A stretch of 64,000 nt of DNA from the NCBI GenBank assembly GCA_963830915.1, contig CAWHOE010000047.1, positions 7,781 through 71,780 on the forward strand, written 5' to 3'. The position numbers and the translations under genes are program-made. The notes under the pieces are model-generated. The model had not been told where the DNA came from. It made no database searches and saw only the letters and a program-made list of their open reading frames with translations. Of the stretch, positions 48,154 to 57,372 are shown piece after piece. The first letter of the stretch is position 1; each line of letters begins with the position of its first letter. The DNA comes from a candidate division FCPU426 bacterium. GTDB lineage: Bacteria > Oederibacteriota > Muellerivitia > Muellerivitales > Muellerivitaceae.

Positions 48154-48347
48154 TGTGCCGATTCTCCAAAATAATAGATGCATAAGAAATCGGTACTATA
48201 CCGACTTCCTTAAAAGCTTTATTGAAAGGTCCCTTGCGTTGAGGCTTCAAGCCGAAACGCTCGATTTAGTTGTGCCGGGCCCATAGATAAATAGGCCCGG
48301 CCATGGCATGTGCCGATTCTCCAAAATAATAGATGTATAAGAAATCG
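48154..48347. repeat. two 39-nt direct repeats (1 mismatch) flanking a GC hairpin
   Basis: TGTGCCGATTCTCCAAAATAATAGATG(C/T)ATAAGAAATCG at 48154-48192 and 48309-48347. Hairpin GCCGGGCC..GGCCCGGC at 48273-48300. Confidence 0.6.
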
Positions 48348-48392: not shown

Positions 48393-48427
48393 TTAGCCGG
48401 GCGGAAACCGCCCGGCTAAAGGGTCTC
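48393..48427 (-). terminator. rho-independent terminator of the Met-rich gene
   Basis: Minus strand: AGCCGGGCGGtttcCGCCCGGCT followed by AATTTTTTTT. Confidence 0.7.
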
Positions 48428-48440
48428 AACTCCGATCTTT

Positions 48441-48680
48441 TTACTTGGCCATCGGCGTCGGGTCCATGGGTTTGGACATTTCCATATTCCCGCCCATGTC
48501 CTTTTTCATCGCCTTCTTCTTTTTCATCTTCTTCATTTTCTTCTTCATCATCATCGCCCCAGGCGTGCTGGCAGGGGCCATGGCGTTGGGGGTGGCCGCC
48601 ATCATGGCTTCATCCGCCCAAACCAACCCGTTCAATCCCAAAAACATCGCGGCCAACGACACAACCAATATCCTCTTCAT
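48441..48680 (-). CDS. small secreted Met/Lys-rich protein (MXKDX-repeat-like)
   Basis: Signal peptide MKRILVVSLAAMFLGLNGLVWA, then AMMAATPNAMAPASTPGAMMMKKKMKKMKKKKAMKKDMGGNMEMSKPMDPTPMAK. The mature part is 17 Met in 58 aa. Confidence 0.55.
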   Translation of the reverse strand: MKRILVVSLAAMFLGLNGLVWADEAMMAATPNAMAPASTPGAMMMKKKMKKMKKKKAMKKDMGGNMEMSKPMDPTPMAK

Positions 48681-48757
48681 GAAAAACCTCCTTGAATTTA
48701 ATGTTGAACAACCGCTACTCCCATGGACCCTGGGGCCCACGGCCTCCCCGAACCCGT

Positions 48758-50488
48758 TCAGCCGAAAGTAAAGGCGTAAACAGAAGTCCCAGGGTCGTCG
48801 AACTCGATACGCAGGCGGTGGGAACCGGGTTTTCCTTTCAAATCCGCCAGGTTGTACAGCCGATGGGTGTCCAGCGTGACCTTCCCGTCACTCACATCCG
48901 CCCCGCCATTCCCGCCCAGGGGTTTGCCGTCAAGAAAAAGGGAAAGATGGTCCCCCTTGTTCGCCGGACCGATCACCAGGTAGACCTTGTCCGCCGTGAA
49001 TTGGATCTCCAGGGCCGACCCTTGGTCCGGCTTGGCCGCCTCATCGCTCAAGGTCCAGGCTCCCTCATAGGCGATCTGGTGGGCCGGAAGGGCCGCCGGG
49101 AGGGTATAGACCTTTTTCCCGGCCGCTGGCTTTTGTGGGGAGGCGAAACGCTCCAGACGGTCCAAACCCAGATAGGATTCGGGCGTCTGGTCGTAGGTCT
49201 CGGCGGGGGCCTGCGCCAGGGCGGCGGCCCCATCCACGGGGTGGCCAGCCTCGGCCAGAAGCTGGCGTATGGCTGCGTCCATTTCCTCGTAATGGCCCTC
49301 GCCGAAATGGGCCAGGCGGATATGCCCCTTGGCGTCGATCAGGTACTCGGCGGGCCAGTACATGTTCTGGTAGGCGGCCCAGGTCTTGAAATCATTGTCC
49401 TGGGGGACCGGGTAGGTGATGTCGAACTGTTTCAATGCCTTTTGGACGTTGGCCGTTTCCTTCTCGAAGGCGAATTCCGGCGCGTGCACGCCGATGAGGA
49501 CGAAATGGTCCGGGCCGTACTTTTCATACCAAGCCTTCGTGTTAGGCAGGGTCCTGAGGCAATTGACGCAGCTGTAGGTCCAAAAATCCACCAGGACCAC
49601 TTTGCCCCTCAGGCCAGCCAGGGTCAAAGGCGGGCTGTTGAGCCAGTTCGTGATGCCGGTAAATTCCGGCGCGGGCCCCAAGTCAGCGAGCTGGCCTCCC
49701 ATCGCGATGGTTTCCTGGCGGGCCTTGGTTCCCCGGAGGGCGTCCAGCTGTTGGCTGACGATCTGGTTGTTTTCAACCCCCTCCACCAGGTTCCCATAGG
49801 AAGGAAAGGCCTCCAGGATCTTCAGTTGGATGGTCTTGTCGTAATTGGTGTAGATCAGAAGCGCCACGGCGATCATGACGACGCCGAAGGCCTGCTGGAT
49901 GAGCCCCGTATATTGATTCACCTGCCGCATTTTAGCGAAGAGGACCGAGCCGCCCAGGGATACCAGGAAGAGCGGTATCCCCAGCCCTACCGAGTAGGCC
50001 AGGGTCACCAGGACCACCTGAAAGCTGACCGATTGGGCGGCGGCCAGGGTGGCGATGGTGGCCAGGATCGGGCCCGCGCAGGGCGCCCAGACCAGGCCGA
50101 TGGAAAAACCCGCCACATAACCGGCGCCGAACCCCGTGCCTTCGCCCTTCCCTTGCAGGCGGTTTTGAAGGGGCCGAAGGACGTTGTTGATCCAGGTCTC
50201 GAACCTCGCGCCCAAGGACGGGAATAAAAGCGCCACTCCCAGCAGGCCGATGATGATGACCGCCGCCAGGCGGAAAACATTGGCGTCGATGTGCAGGAAA
50301 CGCTCCAGGTAGGAAACGAACAGGGTGAAGAGCGTAAAACTGGTCATCACGCCTAGCGTCAAACCGAAGGGTTTTCTTTTTCCCCCGGTGGAGGAAACCG
50401 AAAGGACCAGGGGCAGGAGCGGCCAGATACAAGGCGCCAGGATGGTGGCGAAACCAGCCAGAAAGCTGAAGAAGAGAAGAAATATCAT
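48758..50488 (-). CDS. DipZ-like protein: CcdA/DsbD membrane domain + thioredoxin-like domain + C-terminal beta domain
   Basis: CcdA motif ILAPCIWPLLP; a second conserved Cys in TM4 (WAPCAGP); thioredoxin CxxC (WTYSCVNC); about 150 aa extra C-terminal domain, as in mycobacterial DipZ. Confidence 0.75.
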   Translation of the reverse strand: MIFLLFFSFLAGFATILAPCIWPLLPLVLSVSSTGGKRKPFGLTLGVMTSFTLFTLFVSYLERFLHIDANVFRLAAVIIIGLLGVALLFPSLGARFETWINNVLRPLQNRLQGKGEGTGFGAGYVAGFSIGLVWAPCAGPILATIATLAAAQSVSFQVVLVTLAYSVGLGIPLFLVSLGGSVLFAKMRQVNQYTGLIQQAFGVVMIAVALLIYTNYDKTIQLKILEAFPSYGNLVEGVENNQIVSQQLDALRGTKARQETIAMGGQLADLGPAPEFTGITNWLNSPPLTLAGLRGKVVLVDFWTYSCVNCLRTLPNTKAWYEKYGPDHFVLIGVHAPEFAFEKETANVQKALKQFDITYPVPQDNDFKTWAAYQNMYWPAEYLIDAKGHIRLAHFGEGHYEEMDAAIRQLLAEAGHPVDGAAALAQAPAETYDQTPESYLGLDRLERFASPQKPAAGKKVYTLPAALPAHQIAYEGAWTLSDEAAKPDQGSALEIQFTADKVYLVIGPANKGDHLSLFLDGKPLGGNGGADVSDGKVTLDTHRLYNLADLKGKPGSHRLRIEFDDPGTSVYAFTFG

Positions 50489-50545
50489 GGTAAGACCCTT
50501 TCTTATTTACGGAAGATAACTACTGTCGGCCAAGCGCCCAGGCGC

Positions 50546-51613
50546 TCACTTCTCGAAAAGCTTTTTATATTTACCGTAACCTTCTTTTTCCAGATCCTCT
50601 TTGGGGATGAACCTCAAGGACGCGGAGTTCATGCAGTAACGCAGGCCCGTGGGGGCCGGCCCGTCATCGAACACATGCCCCAGGTGAGAATCGGCGTGCT
50701 TGCTCCTCACCTCGGTCCTTACCTCAAAAAAAGAGCTGTCTTTCTTTTCCACCACATTGTCCGGTTCCAAGGGCCGGGTAAAGCTGGGCCAGCCCGTCCC
50801 GGAATCGAACTTATCCTTGGAGCTGAATAGCGGTTCCCCGGAAACGATATCCACGTAGATCCCTTCCTGATGGTTGTCCCAATACTCGTTCTTGAAGGGT
50901 GTTTCCGTGCCGCTTTCCTGGGTCACCTCGTACTGCAGGCTGGTCAGGCGCTTTTTGATCTCGTCCTGGCTTGGCTTCTTATAGGAAGATTCGCCCTTGT
51001 CATCGCTAAGGGCCGGCGAGTCGCCCCAGACGCCCTGGATATACTCGTCACGGCCAGCGTGGGACCGGTAGGAATAATAATCCTCGGGGTTCTTCTTGTA
51101 GTAATCCTGGTGGTAATCCTCGGCTTTGTAAAAGGTCGAGGCCTTGAGGATCTCCACCACGATCGGCTTGTCGAATTTCCCCGACTTCGCCAGCTTTTCC
51201 ATCGACCTCTCCGCCGCTTGTTTTTGTTCCTCATCGGCGTAAAAGATCACGGGCCGGTACTGGTGGCCCCGGTCCACGAATTGACCGCCGTCATCTGTCG
51301 GATCGATCTGCCTCCAATAGACGTCCAGAAGCTCCGAATAACTGATCACGGAAGGGTCATAAACGACCTGGACCACTTCCGCGTGTCCCTTTTCCTTATA
51401 ATCCTCATAGGTGGGGTTCTCGCCCTGGCCGCCCATATAACCAGCCAGCACTTCCTTCACCCCCTTGAGCTTTTCAAAGGGAGGGGTCATGCACCAGAAA
51501 CAGCCGCCCGCGAAGACCGCTTTCTCGTATTTACCCTCGTCGGCAAAGGCCATCGCGCCAGTCAGGATAAAGACCAGGAAAAACGATGATAAGAAAGGTA
51601 TGTAACTTTTCAT
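50546..51613 (-). CDS. msrAB: periplasmic bifunctional methionine sulfoxide reductase MsrA-MsrB
   Basis: Signal peptide. MsrA GGCFWCM active site. Msr[11 protein letters not shown]...RYCMNSASL active site. Confidence 0.9.
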
Positions 51614-51827
51614 TTTCGAGACTCCTTCCCGCTAGAAACCTTTCGTTTCCCCCGGGTTATTTGATGAACAAGAGAGCGATCCTGGGATCGCCCCTTCTTT
51701 GTTTCGGATTAGTCGTTGGACCCCCCGAATCCTTACAGGCCGGTTAACCTTTTTTTCTTCCGTCCATGACCCTGCCTTTACCAGCGGTTGCCTATAAAAA
51801 ACCGGGCCTTTCTGCTAGATTTGAGCC

Positions 51828-52412
51828 ATGCTTTCAACCCCTGAAAACTGGATCGATCTCCACGGCGATATCCTTTACCGTTACGCCTTGTCCCGGGTGG
51901 GCAAGCCGGAAATCGCGGAGGACCTGGTGCAGGAGGCCCTGCTGGCGGCCCTGCAAAACGCCAAAAGCTTTTTAGGGGGGTCCTCGGAGAGGACCTGGCT
52001 GATCAGCATCCTGAAGCGCAAGATCATCGACCATTTCCGTAAAACGGGCCGGGAAAAGCCCCTCTCCGGGTCGGAGGAAGCGCGCTTGTCCTATGAAGAC
52101 GGCGGTTATTTCGATGAGACAGGGCATTGGAAAAACATCCAGGAATGGGGTTCCCTGCCCTCGGATATCCTTGAGGACAAGGAGTTTTGGCGGGTCTTGA
52201 GCGGTTGTTTGGACAAACTGCCCCTGCGTATGCGCCAGGTCTTTCTACTGAGCGAGCAGGACGGCCTGAAGGGCAAGGAAGTTTGTAAGGTTTTGGGCCT
52301 GAGCCCGTCTAACTTATGGGTATTACTGCACAGGGCCAAGAACGGCTTGCGGCAATGCCTGGAAACCAACTGGTTCGATTTCTTGACGGTTCATAAAGAG
52401 CGCAAATCATGA
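51828..52412 (+). CDS. ECF (sigma-70 family group IV) sigma factor
   Basis: Region 2 (DLVQEALLAALQN) and region 4 HTH (LPLRMRQVFLLSEQDGLKGKEVCKVLGLSPSNLWVLLHRAKNGLRQ). Confidence 0.85.
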   Translation: MLSTPENWIDLHGDILYRYALSRVGKPEIAEDLVQEALLAALQNAKSFLGGSSERTWLISILKRKIIDHFRKTGREKPLSGSEEARLSYEDGGYFDETGHWKNIQEWGSLPSDILEDKEFWRVLSGCLDKLPLRMRQVFLLSEQDGLKGKEVCKVLGLSPSNLWVLLHRAKNGLRQCLETNWFDFLTVHKERKS

Positions 52413-52687
52413 TCGACATCGATTGCAAAGAGGCCAGCAGGCTTTACTCCGAATCCATGCATCACCCTCTGCCCCTTTTAAAATTCATCGCCTTGAAAAT
52501 GCATTTGATGATCTGCGACCTTTGCCGAAAATACGTCAGGCAGTTGAAATTCCTTAGGCGTTCCACGCGGTTGTTGCTTTCAGCGGAGGCGGAAAATGGG
52601 GCGGATCATTCAAAGTTCAAACTCTCGGACAAGGCCAAGAGGCGCCTTAAACTGCGCCTTCGCCAAGCCTCGAACGCCCGCGCCTGA
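52409..52687 (+). CDS. zinc-finger (ZAS) anti-sigma factor, RsrA-like
   Basis: ATGA overlap with the sigma gene. Soluble, 92 aa. C6...H32-x3-C36-x2-C39 has the same spacing as the RsrA zinc/redox ligands. Confidence 0.65.
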   Translation: MIDIDCKEASRLYSESMHHPLPLLKFIALKMHLMICDLCRKYVRQLKFLRRSTRLLLSAEAENGADHSKFKLSDKAKRRLKLRLRQASNARA

Positions 52688-53381
52688 CCGGATCATCCAT
52701 AAGTTCCTTCTCCCTTTGGGTGCCTGTCTCCTGCTCCTGACCGCGTCCGCCTGCCAGGTAAAAGTCACCTACCCGAACGCCGCCGGGACCCTTTTCATCC
52801 GCCAGCAGATCTGCGACCTCCACGACTTCAAAACCGGCTTCTTCAAGCGCGAGAATGACCTCAAGGGCCATGGGTTCCTTACCTACAGTTTCTACCGCGA
52901 CCCCCAGGACCCCAAGACCTATATCCTGTCCTTTGAATGCTCGGACTTGAAAAAGGCGGCGGATCTCATCGGTTCGTCCAATTTTTATATTTCCTGCGTG
53001 GGCGCTGGCCTGGGCCTGCCGCTGGTCTGGGCCGGGGTGGATTTACCAGAGCCGCCCACCCAGGGCCTCACACCCAAGGCGGGCGGGATCGTGGTGGCCC
53101 GTTATAAAGTCAGGGATTACGGGGCCTGGAAAAGGGATTGGGACGCGGCGAACGGCGATGGCAAAACCCGCCTGGGGCGCGGTTTCGCGTTCCGCGCCAT
53201 CAGCCTGCGCCGGGCGGCTGACGATCCCAATACAGTTATCGTGGTTTACGGAGTTTCGGATGTCCCCCAAGCGCGGGCCAATTGGGAGTCTGACACTGAA
53301 AAAAACGCCATGGATGCCGCCAGCGTAATGAAGAAGGACCTCTGGTTTGGGACTGATTTAGAAGAAGGACTCATTCAATGA
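52596..53381 (+). CDS. putative lipoprotein, hypothetical (start uncertain)
   Basis: Hydrophobic LLPLGACLLLLTASAC then about 200 aa. The only canonical start overlaps the anti-sigma gene by 90 nt. Part of this gene (53091-53160) is duplicated at 57256. Confidence 0.4.
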   Translation: MGRIIQSSNSRTRPRGALNCAFAKPRTPAPDRIIHKFLLPLGACLLLLTASACQVKVTYPNAAGTLFIRQQICDLHDFKTGFFKRENDLKGHGFLTYSFYRDPQDPKTYILSFECSDLKKAADLIGSSNFYISCVGAGLGLPLVWAGVDLPEPPTQGLTPKAGGIVVARYKVRDYGAWKRDWDAANGDGKTRLGRGFAFRAISLRRAADDPNTVIVVYGVSDVPQARANWESDTEKNAMDAASVMKKDLWFGTDLEEGLIQ

Positions 53382-53425
53382 GGGTTAGACATCGGGCCTG
53401 ACCCATATACCTGGCCAGGCACCTT

Positions 53426-53956
53426 TTATACCCCTTTATTGCTTCCTATAAATTTAGCTATTACTTTTTTGTTGGCTTCTATAACTTTCTCAAAGGCTGG
53501 CATTTTCGAGTTAAATATAAAATCGTAGTTAGCATCTTTAGCCTTAAATTGATTCACACCATAAGCGATGCTATTAGCCGGTATATTTTTTGTGATTATC
53601 GCGCCTGCCGCCACGACAGAATTTTCACCAATTATTATCGGTCCAAATATTTTCGCTCCATCAGCGATGATCACGTTTTTACTGATGATCGGATTACCGA
53701 TATTTTCCCATTCATTGCTCACTTTGTTGAATTTCAGATTTGCCCCAATACTAACATTTTGAAAAATCACGACGTTTTCGCAAATTTTTGAGGCAACGAT
53801 CGTGCACCCTCGCGCGTGATGAGCGAACAATACACTTTCGTCTATTTCAGTGCAGTTAATTTCACAGCCATAAAATTTTTCCAGTAAGTTGGCAGCCGCT
53901 TGTTTTAGAATTTTATGTTTAGAGAAACAATTTATTTTTAATAATCTATCAAACAT
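53426..53956 (-). CDS. hexapeptide-repeat (LbH) acyl/acetyltransferase
   Basis: Left-handed beta-helix hexapeptide repeats (IGANLKF., IISKNVIIADGAKIFGPIIIGENSVVAAGAIITKNIP). Low-GC gene. Confidence 0.65.
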   Translation of the reverse strand: MFDRLLKINCFSKHKILKQAAANLLEKFYGCEINCTEIDESVLFAHHARGCTIVASKICENVVIFQNVSIGANLKFNKVSNEWENIGNPIISKNVIIADGAKIFGPIIIGENSVVAAGAIITKNIPANSIAYGVNQFKAKDANYDFIFNSKMPAFEKVIEANKKVIAKFIGSNKGV

Positions 53957-54116
53957 ATTTATAACAATCCTTTCTATGAAGCTCTTTTGGGTTTAGGTCA
54001 AATAAACACTTACTCAGCCCTTGCCGCCGAAATATCTCAAGTTTAAATGGGGTTTTCATAATCCGATGCGGGGCCCCGTCGTGAACAATTTTTTTCTCTT
54101 TTTTTATGACCTCAGC

Positions 54117-55241
54117 TTAATTCTTCAACAAATCCTTCAATAGGTTTATTTTTCTTAAAATAATATTGTTTGGTAATCGAACATGACGTGGTTTATTAAG
54201 ATTATTCGTGATTTTGTATTCTGTCATATCACTGTCCGCCATTTCGTAATACTTTAGTGCGGTTTTGAAATCATTCTTCAGGTAATAATAATCACCAAGA
54301 TAGGAATGAAACCGATACTTAGCCGAACGATCTTCAGGGAGCCATTTCCTTAATTCTTCCAGTCCCGCCGACTCATTACCCGTTTCTAAATAAGCGTAGC
54401 TTCTAAAAAGGCCCGTCAAATAAATTAACCCAGAAACATCATCAGGATTTTTAGCGATTTTTTTGTTTAAGCTCCAAATCCGGTCATAAAGCTTGATTCC
54501 CTCTTGTACCCTGCCGGCATAGATGAAAGGCATGAGCCCTTTGGAACAAATTTGAATTGTAATCTCCGGGTTACCTTTCTTTCTGTTTATAAACTTCAAT
54601 GTATTCTCTATGGAGTCCTGATAAATTTCTGGATATTTGTAATTACTGGGAACCATCAAGCCCTTTTGATAAGTGTAAATATCCGGGCCTTCATCTCCAT
54701 AACTTCCTACGGGGACCAATAGAGCATTCACGCCATCCTTCATGGTTTTCACTTGGGCGGATTGAATATTGACGCTTTCGATTTCCTGGAATGTTTTCCC
54801 ATCCCAACGGTAAACATACGTATTGGCCCCAGTCGCCCCATAGACGCAATTTAATATAAGAAATGATTGTTTCGGGTTTTCTGGGTCCAGCGGCGAGGCC
54901 TCAATTCTAATCTTGTAAATATCTGGATAACGAAAACATCCGATTGTTTCGGGTTTACTCGTAGATTTCATCCGTTTAAGGGTAAGGCTCGTATATTCGG
55001 CGCCTTGCTGAGTCCAATGAGTGACGGTTTCCGTTTTTATATTTACTAAATTTCCATCCCCCAGAAGATCCAAATCAATTGAATTGTTAATTACTTGTAG
55101 CTTTTCTTTATCATTTTCTTGGATAGTTGGACTTTGGGATGGGAAACTGGACGATGGTTTTGGGTCTGTTGAATCGGCGGAAACAATACCAACAATAAGG
55201 CAAATGACCAATGCCCAAATATATTTTTGGAAAAATATCAT
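54117..55241 (-). CDS. hypothetical secreted protein (low GC)
   Basis: Signal peptide MIFFQKYIWALVICLIVGIVSA and TPR-like helices at the C-terminus. Confidence 0.4.
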   Translation of the reverse strand: MIFFQKYIWALVICLIVGIVSADSTDPKPSSSFPSQSPTIQENDKEKLQVINNSIDLDLLGDGNLVNIKTETVTHWTQQGAEYTSLTLKRMKSTSKPETIGCFRYPDIYKIRIEASPLDPENPKQSFLILNCVYGATGANTYVYRWDGKTFQEIESVNIQSAQVKTMKDGVNALLVPVGSYGDEGPDIYTYQKGLMVPSNYKYPEIYQDSIENTLKFINRKKGNPEITIQICSKGLMPFIYAGRVQEGIKLYDRIWSLNKKIAKNPDDVSGLIYLTGLFRSYAYLETGNESAGLEELRKWLPEDRSAKYRFHSYLGDYYYLKNDFKTALKYYEMADSDMTEYKITNNLNKPRHVRLPNNIILRKINLLKDLLKN

Positions 55242-55274
55242 TCTAGTAACTTTCCATTCAATACCGTTTCCATT

Positions 55275-55428
55275 GTCCACGATGGGTCCCTGTCGTGGAC
55301 ATCTAAAACCTCAGATTAAAGCCCCAACTTTTTTAGAAGTTGGGCCGTGGTGTACCACTCAATGCCGGTTCCTTCAAAATCCCCGTCATTTGATCAAATG
55401 GGCATTTCCAACTCCAGAGCCAAAGCCA
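55275..55428. repeat. copy A of ~153-bp direct repeat (hairpin GTCCACGAtgggtccctgTCGTGGAC + 3' fragment of a PIN gene)
   Basis: About 94% identical to 56221-56373. It encodes a remnant ...IPIWSNDGDFEGTGIEWYTTAQLLKKLGL-like tail without the rest of the gene. Confidence 0.7.
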
Positions 55429-55467
55429 TAGGAAAAAGTCCGTCTCTCGGACTTTTTCAACATCCTG

Positions 55468-55884
55468 TTAAAAGGGATTTTTAACCGTGAGGTCACCGAA
55501 CTTCCTTCCGGCCTGAAAGTCCTCCGTCAACAATAGCCGGGCTCCACTCCTTTGGGCTGAAACGACAATCAGGGCGTCCCAAAAGGAGATCTTGGCCCGT
55601 TCCTCCAGTTGTGCCGCCTCAGCCACCATTCCCCCATGAATGCTCACCGTATCCCAGGAAAGATATTGGGAAATCAATTCCAAGCCCCGCTTTTTGGTCA
55701 GGGGCTTCGGGATTTTGCGGGTCACATTGACATAAAATTCCTCCAACACCTGGGCGCTCAAGACCCCACCATTGTTCTCCCATAGTTCAACCACCGCTTT
55801 ACGGGCCTTTTGGTGCTTCTCCCCCGCATCCCGGTCATAAGCGTAGAGCAGGATGTTCGTGTCCACAAATGTCTTAACGCTCAT
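55468..55884 (-). CDS. vapC: PIN-domain toxin VapC
   Basis: FVDTNILLYAYD...acidic residues...WDALIV. Confidence 0.85.
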   Translation of the reverse strand: MSVKTFVDTNILLYAYDRDAGEKHQKARKAVVELWENNGGVLSAQVLEEFYVNVTRKIPKPLTKKRGLELISQYLSWDTVSIHGGMVAEAAQLEERAKISFWDALIVVSAQRSGARLLLTEDFQAGRKFGDLTVKNPF

Positions 55885-56104
55885 GAAGGCTTTCCCGAGA
55901 GCTGCGCTTACCGCCGAAAGCTAGCCCTTTTTCCATCGCCTCAAGCGCTTTCACCTTGGATTCCTGGTAAAACTGTTCCTCCGCTGCCATCTTTTGGATA
56001 TAAGCCGCCAATAAACCCGTTATGGAGGTTTCATGATGGGCGGCTAGTATCTTTGCCTTCTTGATGAGGTCTTTGTCCAGGCTCAAGGTTAAGTTTTGTT
56101 TCAC
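55874..56104 (-). CDS. vapB: VapB-type antitoxin
   Basis: 76 aa, overlaps the vapC start by 11 nt; small alpha-helical DNA-binding type. Confidence 0.6.
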   Translation of the reverse strand: MKQNLTLSLDKDLIKKAKILAAHHETSITGLLAAYIQKMAAEEQFYQESKVKALEAMEKGLAFGGKRSSRESLHER

Positions 56105-56220
56105 GGGAGACTCCTTTGCACGTAATTATGTGTATCACGTGAAAGAACTTTTATCAAGTTCAAACAGACGGGTTTATCCGCTTTCCCAGGAAGTCTGTGG
56201 ATGTTTAAGAAAATCTGCCT

Positions 56221-56373
56221 GTCCACGATGGGTCCCTGTCGTGGACATCAAAACCTCAGATTAAAGCCCCAACTTTTTAAGAAGTTGGGCCGTGGTGTAC
56301 CACTCAATGCCGGTTCCTTCAAAATCCCCGTCGTTTGACCAAATGGGTATTTCCAGCTCCAGAGCCAAAGCCA
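56221..56373. repeat. copy B of ~153-bp direct repeat (overlaps 3' end of PIN gene 56261..56692)
   Basis: See copy A. Confidence 0.7.
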
Positions 56374-56692
56374 GCAGATCGACATCATCCGGGTCTCTTT
56401 TACCGATTTTTTTCCGAGCCATTGCGAGCGAGCCCTGATAATCCTTCAAGCCGTACTCCTTGATGGCTAATAATTGAAATTGGCTTTCCAAGAGTTCCGC
56501 GGCTATACCATATTTCTCTGCCATGATCGGCAAGTATTCCCGAACTTCGTGGATATTCAAGGTTGTGGATACGACTTCAAGGTGGGATTGGGTGAAAACT
56601 TTGAGGGCAGCCCTGCCGGTTACAGCGGAAAGGAGGACGTTAGCGTCCGCGGCGATCCGACCGGCGGCTTTTTCTCCATGTTTCAAAGTCAT
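56261..56692 (-). CDS. PIN-domain toxin
   Basis: IAADANVLLSA...DPDDVDLLALALELEIPIWSNDGDF. The start was chosen at MTLKHG. Confidence 0.65.
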   Translation of the reverse strand: MTLKHGEKAAGRIAADANVLLSAVTGRAALKVFTQSHLEVVSTTLNIHEVREYLPIMAEKYGIAAELLESQFQLLAIKEYGLKDYQGSLAMARKKIGKRDPDDVDLLALALELEIPIWSNDGDFEGTGIEWYTTAQLLKKLGL

Positions 56693-56918
56693 GTGTGACC
56701 GTCCGCTCAGTGACGCCTGATTTTTTAAGATGATCCGAAATGGCAAGGCCCAAGTTCATTAAAAGCTCTTTCCGCAATTCCAAAGGTAGTTCCTGTGATT
56801 TGGACATTGGAACCAAAAGGCTGGCAACCTTCCCGTGTTTGGTCACAAACACGAGATCATCGCCGCTCAGAAACTCCGGCGCGTGATCCCTAAATTCCCT
56901 TACCCCCGCGACTCGCAT
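56640..56918 (-). CDS. Phd/YefM-family antitoxin
   Basis: VREFRDHAPEFL..DDLVFVTKHGKVASLLVPM. Confidence 0.7.
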   Translation of the reverse strand: MRVAGVREFRDHAPEFLSGDDLVFVTKHGKVASLLVPMSKSQELPLELRKELLMNLGLAISDHLKKSGVTERTVTHDFETWRKSRRSDRRGR

Positions 56919-57025
56919 AAAACCACCTTCCCGCGACCGTTGATACTTTCTACCCCTTCAATATAGGATTTCATAAAATTATGTCAACAATTATGTACAC
57001 AATATACATTTTCCTTTGTCCACGA

Positions 57026-57106
57026 CGGCGGTGCCCTAAAGTAGACCCTATAGCAGAACCTATCGGCACGCTATAGGGTCTGCTACTGGGATCCCATCGT
57101 GGACAA
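57026..57106. repeat. nested-palindrome element (outer TTGTCCACGA/TCGTGGACAA, inner GTAGACCCTATAGC/GCTATAGGGTCTGC)
   Basis: Read directly. The outer arms are the same GTCCACGA arms as the hairpin in repeat copies A and B. Confidence 0.65.
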
Positions 57107-57138
57107 ACCATTACGATAATTTATGGTTTTCGCCAGAT

Positions 57139-57178
57139 CCCCCGATTACTCAGTCATTGAGTATTTTTACTCAGTCAC
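57139..57178. promoter_or_regulatory. two adjacent operator-like palindromes TACTCAGTCA(T/C)TGAGTA
   Basis: ATTACTCAGTCATTGAGTAT and the perfect TACTCAGTCACTGAGTA, upstream of the gene fragment at 57256. Confidence 0.45.
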
Positions 57179-57255
57179 TGAGTAATCCGTAATAACCTTT
57201 TTCCGCTCCAAAAAGCCCATTTCCGAAGGTTCATTCAAATATCTCATCGATCAAG

Positions 57256-57372
57256 GGATCATGGTGGCGCGTTACAAAGTCAGGGATTACGGGGCCTGGA
57301 AAAGGGATTGGGACGCGGCAAACGGAAAAGAAAAAGCAAAACACAGAAGCAATTCCAACAAAGATCTTAAAC
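57256..57372 (+). pseudogene. 38-codon fragment duplicating an internal segment of the lipoprotein gene 52596..53381
   Basis: MVARYKVRDYGAWKRDWDAANG... is near-identical at nucleotide level to 53091-53160 (IVVARYKVRDYGAWKRDWDAANGDG). Confidence 0.6.

Follow-up and report, generated by a model that had tools for sequence, protein, structure and literature searches.

Control of exported methionine sulfoxide reductases (Msr) by a dedicated extracytoplasmic function (ECF) sigma factor has been described in two proteobacterial pathogens. In Neisseria meningitidis, sigmaE (NMB2144) controls msrAB, and the cysteine residues of its anti-sigma factor MseR (NMB2145) are needed for anti-sigma activity (PMC2893595). 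In Haemophilus influenzae, the RpoE2/HrsE pair controls msrAB and responds to hypochlorous acid (HOCl), and the autoregulation of RpoE2 is very weak (PMC3240639, PMC7907618). The published regulons of both organisms consist of msrAB and doxX operons. The Neisseria consensus, which is experimentally anchored, is composed of -35 GTMAGBWTT, a spacer of 12-13 nt and -10 CGTCTAAH, with the transcription start 6 nt downstream (PMC2893595). Here we describe a related locus at positions 48441-53381 of a 64,000-nucleotide stretch (contig CAWHOE010000047.1 of assembly GCA_963830915.1; hereafter the window) from a candidate division FCPU426 bacterium. In this locus an exported MsrA-MsrB fusion, a DipZ-like membrane protein and a secreted Met/Lys-rich peptide are encoded divergently from an ECF sigma factor and a zinc-associated anti-sigma (ZAS)-type protein. 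The six genes of the locus, arranged in two divergent transcription units, probably form an envelope methionine-oxidation defence regulon.

Three other kinds of described systems are relevant for comparison. In Streptococcus pneumoniae, the CcdA-Etrx-MsrAB2 system co-encodes a CcdA-type transporter, an extracytoplasmic thioredoxin fold and an exported MsrAB (PMC3914529), and the CcdA/thioredoxin (Trx)/MsrAB operons of S. gordonii, Fusobacterium nucleatum and H. influenzae follow the same logic (PMC7034828, PMC9239216; table in PMC13488963). In Streptococcus, Haemophilus and Fusobacterium, it is accepted that exported MsrAB is reduced by CcdA together with Trx (review PMC13488963). The SigF/NrsF-MrpX-YedY(MsrP) system of Azospira suillum and the BcrS/AbcS-BcrXQP system of Brucella melitensis combine a divergent ECF sigma/anti-sigma pair with an operon for a periplasmic Met-sulfoxide reductase and a charged, signal-peptide-bearing peptide with at least 20% Met (PMC4436054, PMC8315932); MrpX itself contains 20% Met and 44% charged residues (PMC4436054). 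DipZ of Mycobacterium tuberculosis (Rv2874; PDB 2HYX, 5CYY) joins a CcdA-type transmembrane (TM) domain, a thioredoxin domain and a Thioredoxin_10 domain, and its physiological partner was not found in our literature search.

The minus-strand unit of the FCPU426 locus is an operon that runs from 51613 to 48441 and contains the genes of the MsrA-MsrB fusion (50546-51613), the DipZ-like protein (48758-50488) and the peptide (48441-48680). The gaps between them are 57 nt and 77 nt long, with no terminator in either of them, and the operon is followed by an intrinsic terminator on the same strand (48393-48419), which has a 12-bp stem with nine GC pairs followed by T8. The free energy of this hairpin was -24.5 kcal/mol (z = -5.3 against shuffled sequences), and the hairpin is kept in the relative L089. 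The plus-strand unit (51828-53381) contains the sigma gene, the anti-sigma gene and an open reading frame (ORF) of 261 codons. Five of the six genes had been reported in a first-pass annotation made from the sequence alone, and all five were recovered by the ORF calls and the Pfam and NCBIfam searches; their identities are assigned with high confidence. The Rfam scan of the window returned three tRNAs only, all outside this locus. The gap between the DipZ-like and peptide genes (48681-48757, minus strand) can fold into a hairpin of -24.6 kcal/mol without a U-tract, which is statistically not distinctive (z = -1.55); a role in mRNA processing or stabilisation, by which the peptide gene would be expressed at a level of its own, is conceivable.

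The operon is preceded by a predicted sigma-dependent promoter. As in Neisseria and Haemophilus, where the principal target is likewise an exported MsrAB, the promoter has the architecture GTMAGBWTT-N12-CGTCTAAH. It was located at 51708-51736 on the minus strand, about 95 nt upstream of the msrAB ATG, with the -35 element GTAAGGATT, a 12-nt spacer and the -10 element CGACTAAT, and it has one mismatch to the Neisseria sigmaE consensus. The predicted start is the A at 51702, which would leave a leader of about 88 nt. With one mismatch or fewer, the consensus occurred at exactly two sites in the 64-kb window against 0.00 expected, as calculated from 100 dinucleotide-preserving shuffles with zero matches; the second site lies inside the sigma gene. 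Both sites became exact when position 3 of the -10 element was relaxed to A/T (2 in 64 kb against 0.00 expected), a relaxation that was picked after the msrAB site had been seen. In L093, a contig of the window's own species whose DipZ is 98% identical, the -35 and -10 elements of both sites are intact and the spacer of the msrAB promoter carries three substitutions. The first-pass annotation had proposed that an ECF promoter in the intergenic region 51614-51827 might be shared with the sigma gene; the site in front of msrAB was indeed present, but no corresponding promoter upstream of the sigma gene was found with it.

The same motif was observed in other members of the sigma family. In the verrucomicrobial locus L072, the linkage to msr recurs with an exported MsrB-MsrA gene divergent from the sigma gene, and this msrBA gene is preceded by GTAAGTTTT-N12-CGACTCAC. 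Elsewhere, in family members of several phyla, the motif lies upstream of DoxX-like genes, a DedA-disulfide-reductase fusion and others, and its position before DoxX-like and disulfide-reductase genes fits the published msrAB and doxX regulons of Neisseria and Haemophilus. The msr genes of the flavobacterial family members L068 and L043 have no CG[AT]C-type motif upstream, and no site with one mismatch or fewer was present in 602 kb of other DipZ-like loci. The promoter was recognised only once the Neisseria consensus (PMC2893595) was applied; when the upstream regions of 75 family sigma genes were searched without bias for a common bipartite motif, only AT-rich noise emerged, and inspection of the individual sigma upstream regions revealed no common element. 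A palindromic hairpin in the msrAB leader (51673-51694) was dropped, being not kept as a palindrome in L093. Control of the msrAB-dipZ-peptide operon by the sigma factor is assigned with high confidence.

The sigma factor (51828-52412, plus strand) contains only the sigma-2 (PF04542) and sigma-4 (PF08281) domains and scored 169.0 bits against TIGR02943, above the cutoff of 162.2, so that the ECF sigma factor described divergent to the msr operon by the first-pass annotation was borne out. It belongs to the same TIGR02943 family as Neisseria sigmaE and H. influenzae RpoE2, and the anti-sigma factors of all three belong to NF052368 (PMC2893595, PMC3240639, PMC7907618). About 4,600 relatives were found at E<=1e-10, the nearest of them, at 55-57% identity, in metagenome-assembled genomes (MAGs) of Nitrospirota / Candidatus Manganitrophaceae; by itself, this similarity would make a relationship of the host to these bacteria probable. 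The anti-sigma gene (52409-52687, plus strand) follows directly, as in Neisseria and Haemophilus; its start overlaps the sigma stop in the sequence ATGA (52409-52412), and the two genes are translationally coupled. Its product of 92 residues scored 56.2 bits against NF052368 'antisigmaE' (cutoff 50) and is assigned to the cytoplasm because it is without a hydrophobic segment, no TM segment being present in the hydropathy profile.

The residues C6, H32, C36 and C39 of the anti-sigma factor are exactly those claimed previously, and their spacing is identical to that of MseR and RsrA (PMC2893595). Among 80 loci of the family in reference genomes, 56 have a detected ZAS anti-sigma gene directly downstream of the sigma gene, and the pattern C-x25-H-x3-C-x2-C is invariant in all 56 proteins. 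The conservation of these residues suggests that the anti-sigma factor may bind zinc and sense redox changes; a PDB sequence search with it gave no match. The sigmaR-RsrA pair of Streptomyces coelicolor, with the identical Cys/His/Cys/Cys spacing, serves as the model of a cytoplasmic thiol-switch anti-sigma factor. Unlike the pair described here, it belongs to a different ECF group and controls a cytoplasmic thioredoxin/mycothiol system rather than an envelope Msr regulon, and no evidence of its thioredoxin feedback loop was found at the window locus.

The second sigmaE-type site lies inside the sigma gene (52285-52313, plus strand) as GTAAGGTTT-N12-CGTCTAAC, with zero mismatches to the consensus. 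It is situated about 95 nt before the anti-sigma ATG, with its predicted start about 90 nt before that ATG, and it overlaps codons 153-162 (CKVLGLSPSN) in the helix-turn-helix of region 4.2. Given this peptide sequence and the codon usage of the window, the chance of a perfect motif was 2e-4, which implied that the internal copy was not explained by the protein sequence. In the homologous DNA of 46 family members, 3.6 mismatches to the motif were found against 5.1 expected from the protein sequences, and the test gave p<=0.05 in 17 of the 46; homologous sites were located at 8452-8480 in L018, 8449-8477 in L051, 8422-8450 in L059 and 8452-8480 in L068. The codon supplying the 'CG' of the -10 element was NCG in 37 of 41 members, against a background of 19% in the same genes (p about 2e-22). 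This codon encodes Ala, Pro, Ser or Thr and is NCG whichever residue is specified, which points to selection on the -10 element at the nucleotide level.

A second motif within the sigma coding sequence and ahead of the anti-sigma gene argues for negative feedback and not for positive autoregulation. With moderate confidence, we conclude that a conserved, sigma-dependent internal promoter drives the anti-sigma gene, and here also the gene of the 261-residue protein. Neisseria sigmaE is positively autoregulated, whereas the window has no sigma-type promoter upstream of the sigma gene and an internal one instead. The pair GGTTAACC...CGTCCA upstream of the sigma gene was considered as its own ECF promoter and was rejected, with a spacing 3-4 nt too short and with both halves mutated in L093 (GGCCAACC, CGCCCA). 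The rpoE-rseA operon of Escherichia coli has an analogous internal sigmaE-dependent promoter (rseA P3). Both internal promoters drive an anti-sigma gene, but the sigma factors belong to different ECF families, and unlike rseA P3 the promoter in the window overlaps the DNA of the region-4.2 helix-turn-helix and is conserved across phyla.

The first gene of the operon encodes an exported MsrA-MsrB fusion of 355 residues, as had been claimed. The Pfam domains PMSR (E=3e-62) and SelR (E=2e-49) were identified, residues 33-352 matched NF010625 (E=3.6e-107), and a single hydrophobic segment lies at the N-terminus (residues 3-25). Only three cysteines are present, two in the GCFWC motif of MsrA (C38/C41) and one in the RYC motif of MsrB (C327), and unlike Neisseria PilB the protein is without a thioredoxin domain of its own. 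The MsrB domain (residues about 213-346) contains C327 as its single cysteine and has GTGWPSF where the MsrAB of the locus L166 has GCGWPSF; the MsrB of L072 also has T at this position. It may be a 1-Cys MsrB which needs direct reduction by a thioredoxin partner.

The second gene encodes a DipZ-like membrane thiol-disulfide electron transporter of 576 residues, which consists of a six-TM CcdA-type domain, a thioredoxin domain and a C-terminal Thioredoxin_10 domain, as in M. tuberculosis DipZ. The Pfam matches were DsbD_TM (PF02683, 2.8e-11), AhpC/TSA (PF00578, 2.2e-9) and Thioredoxin_10 (PF17991, 3.5e-33), together with Thioredoxin_8. The best PDB match was M. tuberculosis DipZ (2HYX/5CYY, E=1e-60) over the soluble part, followed by the weaker matches SOQ1 (3e-26), pneumococcal Etrx (2e-9) and CcdA (5VKV, 5e-8), and the earlier description of a CcdA-thioredoxin membrane protein thus stood. 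The DipZ-like protein contains exactly four cysteines, one pair in APC motifs within hydrophobic segments of the CcdA-type domain (C20 and C137) and the other in the thioredoxin domain (C307-VN-C310). By the loop charges and the positive-inside rule, the thioredoxin domain is predicted to lie on the extracytoplasmic side.

Genomic context links DipZ-like proteins to MsrA and MsrB. Of 76 loci recovered from metagenomes with the DipZ-like protein as query, 60 have a clear DipZ-like gene, and msrA and/or msrB was present within 1.5 kb in 32 of the 60 (both in 17), many of the remaining loci being cut by contig ends. M. tuberculosis DipZ shares the domains of these proteins, whereas the window and the 32 metagenomic relatives have neighbours that point to MsrA/MsrB. 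Where both are present, msrB-dipZ-msrA is the typical order, and many soil and peat contigs among the metagenome loci L102-L151 have it (e.g. L104 4017-7120, L113 2894-6024, L140 5437-8361); their DipZ-type fusions are 35-41% identical to the window protein. No paper linking DipZ with Msr was found in a full-text literature search. The role of electron feeder that had been proposed for the DipZ-like protein is supported by the four-Cys relay and by this adjacency, and we infer that it is the electron donor of MsrAB. The reductant of MsrAB at this locus would thus be a single fused DipZ-type protein, unlike the DsbD or separate CcdA and Trx of Neisseria and Haemophilus. The arrangement resembles CcdA-Etrx-MsrAB2, but in the window CcdA and Trx are fused, an additional Thioredoxin_10 domain is present and a Met-rich peptide is co-encoded; control is exerted by an ECF sigma factor, unlike the two-component system of F. 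nucleatum. In L153/L154 (5418-5951), a membrane-anchored thioredoxin (WCPTC) has a Met/Asp/Glu-rich linker with 13 Met, and its gene immediately precedes those of CcdA and of a DipZ-like Trx protein.

The last gene of the operon, which the operons of Neisseria and Haemophilus do not include, encodes the Met/Lys-rich peptide. Its ATG at 48680 on the minus strand is preceded at 6 nt by AAGGAGG, and the 79-residue precursor has a signal-peptide-like N-terminus (...GLVWA|DE) and a mature part of 57 residues, which contains 14 Met (25%) and 13 Lys but no His or Cys and is 32% charged. The first-pass count of 17 Met in 58 residues was a slight overcount of a peptide that is nevertheless Met-rich. 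Orthologues in L089, L094, L096, L169 and L093 keep the signal peptide. In the alignment with L089, indels are in-frame only (3, 6 and 12 nt) and the Shine-Dalgarno sequence, start codon and terminator are kept, which identifies the peptide gene as a genuine coding gene. The six orthologues share a MMMKKKMKKMKKKK-type core and contain 16-26% Met and 10-16 Lys, without His or Cys. The family is tiny, with 2 clusters among 5.8 billion proteins; a profile search of 1.84 billion proteins returned 8 representatives, all of them from the peptide's own small family, and Pfam gave nothing for the peptide even at E<=10. Five distinct loci of relatives have the peptide gene together with dipZ, in the order dipZ-peptide-redoxin in L089 and L096 and peptide-dipZ-redoxin in L169. 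An independent pairing of an unrelated Met-rich protein with a thiol-type extracytoplasmic Msr system is found in the Firmicute-like locus L166 (3577-8370), where the gene of a secreted 182-residue protein with MMMKDD/MMMEDD repeats (42 Met in total) lies upstream of those of a response regulator and a histidine kinase and, after them, of CcdA and two lipoproteins, a Trx and an MsrAB.

Together, these components could operate as follows. In the resting state the anti-sigma factor would hold the sigma factor, and oxidation of its C6/C36/C39 thiols, as judged from MseR and RsrA, would release it. Free sigma factor would then act at the promoter 51736-51708 to give one mRNA ending at the terminator 48419-48393. 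The exported MsrA-MsrB would reduce both Met-sulfoxide epimers in periplasmic proteins and would itself be restored by the DipZ-like protein, whose periplasmic CVNC thioredoxin domain would draw cytoplasmic electrons via the C20/C137 pair of the CcdA-type membrane domain. Like MrpX, the secreted peptide would most likely offer additional Met residues as a sacrificial target for oxidant, with MsrAB recycling them. Free sigma factor would also fire the internal promoter and thereby supply more anti-sigma factor and the exported 261-residue protein, which would shut off the response.

Several observations weigh against this model, first on the side of the regulator. Only 4 of the 80 sigma-family loci contain msr genes, and none is found near the closest sigma relatives in the Nitrospirota MAGs (55-57% identity); the expectation that close relatives share the msrAB neighbourhood was therefore rejected, and the msr linkage of this sigma factor is to be regarded as lineage-specific. 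No sigma-type promoter with three mismatches or fewer is present upstream of the sigma gene (plus strand, 51614-51827), and in N. meningitidis no oxidant was found to induce sigmaE (PMC2893595). On the side of the peptide, its kept neighbour in L089, L094, L096 and L169 is dipZ and not msrAB, and the Met-rich member L172 adjoins neither. The adjacency of msrAB and the sigma pair to the peptide gene is confined to the window and L093, so that co-transcription with an Msr gene in the manner of MrpX is limited to this lineage, and the reductase concerned is MsrAB and not MsrP. The peptide gave no hit to TIGR02953, the MXKDX repeat family containing MrpX/BcrX (cutoff 41 bits), and it contains a single literal MxKDx unit (MKKDM); in favour of the model, the orthologues in L169 and L094 do match this family, at sub-threshold scores of 23.1 and 18.1 bits. 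The L169 peptide has only 16% Met, and in the distant homologues P0166 and P0169 the mature part is free of Met, with Val or Ala in its place and the Lys-rich core kept, which implied that Met richness is not the invariant feature of the family.

Because the family is tiny, is linked to dipZ rather than msrAB and includes Met-free homologues, the sink role stays a plausible hypothesis. As a sacrificial sink the peptide has its best single explanation, one that is not secured and whose chances we consider roughly even. The fuller proposal, in which the peptide is the sacrificial substrate of a thiol-based Met cycle from DipZ to MsrAB that is switched by a ZAS/ECF pair with a motif in the DNA of its own recognition helix, is tentative and more doubtful than not. 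The peptide shares with MrpX its small size, a signal peptide, a Met content of at least 20% and many charged residues, as well as its place in an operon with a periplasmic Met-sulfoxide reductase and a divergent ECF sigma/anti-sigma pair. The comparison with the MrpX systems also shows differences, since the reductase here is the thiol-based MsrAB with DipZ instead of the molybdoenzyme MsrP with MsrQ and quinol, the sigma factor is not of the ECF16 group and the anti-sigma factor is a soluble ZAS protein and not the six-TM NrsF. The peptide itself is also distinct from MrpX: it falls outside the MXKDX model, it is rich in Lys and not K/D-balanced, and its tiny family is lineage-restricted.

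A polycationic, disordered periplasmic stress protein, acting as a protectant or chaperone in the manner of Asr or Spy or as an accessory of DipZ, with Met of secondary importance, is a serious rival to the sink, although in our judgement an unlikely one. P0166 and P0169 (locus L171 917-1138) keep the signal peptide, the Ala/Pro/Thr-rich arms and the Lys-rich core while Val or Ala replaces Met, and P0166 adjoins, in divergent orientation, an HSP20 gene. The conserved neighbour dipZ also agrees with such a role, as do the sole NCBIfam match of the window peptide, which is weak and is to the acid-shock protein Asr (E=6e-4), and the weak matches of orthologues to Spy; these matches, however, are far below cutoff and probably compositional. 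Against this rival, the 16-26% Met of the six orthologues is far more than proteins ordinarily contain, and DipZ-like proteins are generally partners of Msr. Among the six distinct Met-rich members with readable context, all but L172 adjoin dipZ, while P0166, the one Met-free member with readable context, does not.

Met-rich copper proteins bind Cu(I) through Met motifs. The peptide might accordingly be viewed as a periplasmic Cu(I)/Ag(I) sponge with Met motifs of the PcoE/SilE/CusF type that shields the DipZ and MsrAB thiols from copper; Cu(I) binding had also been named in the first-pass annotation. By analogy, thioether Cu(I) sites could arise from the clustered Met residues of the core MMMKKKMKKMKKKKAMKKDM, which are spaced i+3 to i+5. 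A copper role is very improbable, since none of the six orthologues contains His or Cys, a net charge as strongly positive as that of the peptide is unfavourable to the binding of cations, the genes under the regulator family are those of msr, doxX and redox functions, and no copper efflux, multicopper oxidase or metal-sensor gene is present among the neighbours examined or in the relatives' loci. That the adjacency is a coincidence, the sigma pair controlling other genes and the msrAB operon being transcribed from an unrelated promoter, would agree with the 76 of 80 sigma-family loci and the nearest sigma relatives that have no msr neighbours and with the relatives that have the dipZ-peptide pair without the sigma pair, but it is the least credible explanation in view of the two consensus matches with at most one mismatch against 0.00 expected, one of them correctly placed and oriented upstream of msrAB, the kept motif and variable spacer in L093, the recurrence of arrangement and motif in L072 and the experimental precedent in Neisseria and Haemophilus.

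The sixth gene (52596-53381, plus strand) is probably co-transcribed with the anti-sigma gene and encodes an exported protein or lipoprotein of 261 residues. The 32 members of its family share a lipobox-like A-x-A-C as well as three additional conserved Cys, and Pfam gave nothing for the protein even at E<=10. The start is uncertain, because the ATG at 52596, which follows GGAGG, overlaps the anti-sigma gene by 92 nt and gives an N-terminus about 20-40 residues longer than that of the homologues. In the AlphaFold (AF2) model (mean predicted local distance difference test, pLDDT, 83.6), the protein forms a tandem ferredoxin-like alpha+beta barrel, and the Foldseek matches were generic ABM-type 'putative monooxygenases' (TM-score about 0.5). 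A chlorite dismutase/HemQ was considered and rejected, as these proteins were lower-ranked matches with TM-scores of only about 0.45-0.5, the top matches were generic tandem ABM-like barrels and the family is without an invariant His. Homologues (e.g. L094 4027-4752, L169 6001-6678, L170 6001-6711) adjoin dipZ, periplasmic AhpC/TSA-like redoxins and DUF1223, and the protein is probably another envelope thiol-redox component.

Two features were observed beside the locus. In the 600-nt non-coding gap between the terminator of the peptide gene and a Kelch-repeat gene, a 39-nt direct repeat is present at 48154-48192 and 48309-48347 (plus strand), with the copies 97% identical and 155 nt apart and no others in the window. 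Near this position L089, and on the other side of dipZ also L169, encode an AhpC/TSA-like redoxin; the window has no such periplasmic redoxin gene, and the repeat may be what a deletion or insertion left behind. On the other side, a low-GC island (53400-57341; GC 36-42% against about 55%) contains genes of a hexapeptide acetyltransferase, a family-less 387-residue ORF, a VapC-like PIN toxin and its antitoxin, and a PIN_2 protein. The 261-codon gene lies on one side of this island and a 29-codon remnant of a paralogue of that gene (57255-57341, 83% identical) on the other, so that the island looks like an insertion into a duplicated region.

Each element of the locus has a precedent in sigmaE/MseR, RpoE2/HrsE, CcdA-Etrx-MsrAB2, MrpX-MsrP, BcrXQP or DipZ, and the locus is a recombination of three known antioxidant ideas and not a new kind of system. 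What is new is the association of a thiol-type MsrAB with three partners, namely a ZAS/ECF switch, a fused DipZ reductant and a Met-rich peptide, as well as the internal feedback promoter and the uncultured environmental host, which is not a proteobacterial pathogen as in Neisseria and Haemophilus. Independently of the role of the peptide, the sigmaE-msrAB logic of Neisseria and Haemophilus and its promoter motif extend to environmental phyla, DipZ-type fusions are systematically encoded with MsrA/MsrB in soil bacteria, which provides a testable substrate hypothesis, and the conserved internal promoter in region 4.2 predicts a built-in negative feedback via the anti-sigma factor in the ECF family TIGR02943. 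If the peptide is a true sink, it would be the first of the MrpX type to work with a classical MsrAB and not with the molybdoenzyme MsrP, and electrons from cytoplasmic thioredoxin and not from quinol would be channelled into periplasmic oxidant scavenging. Sacrificial Met buffering would then have evolved at least twice, once with MsrP/MsrQ and quinol and once with MsrAB/DipZ and cytoplasmic thiols, and Met cycling would be a general antioxidant strategy of the envelope rather than a peculiarity of perchlorate reducers and Brucella.

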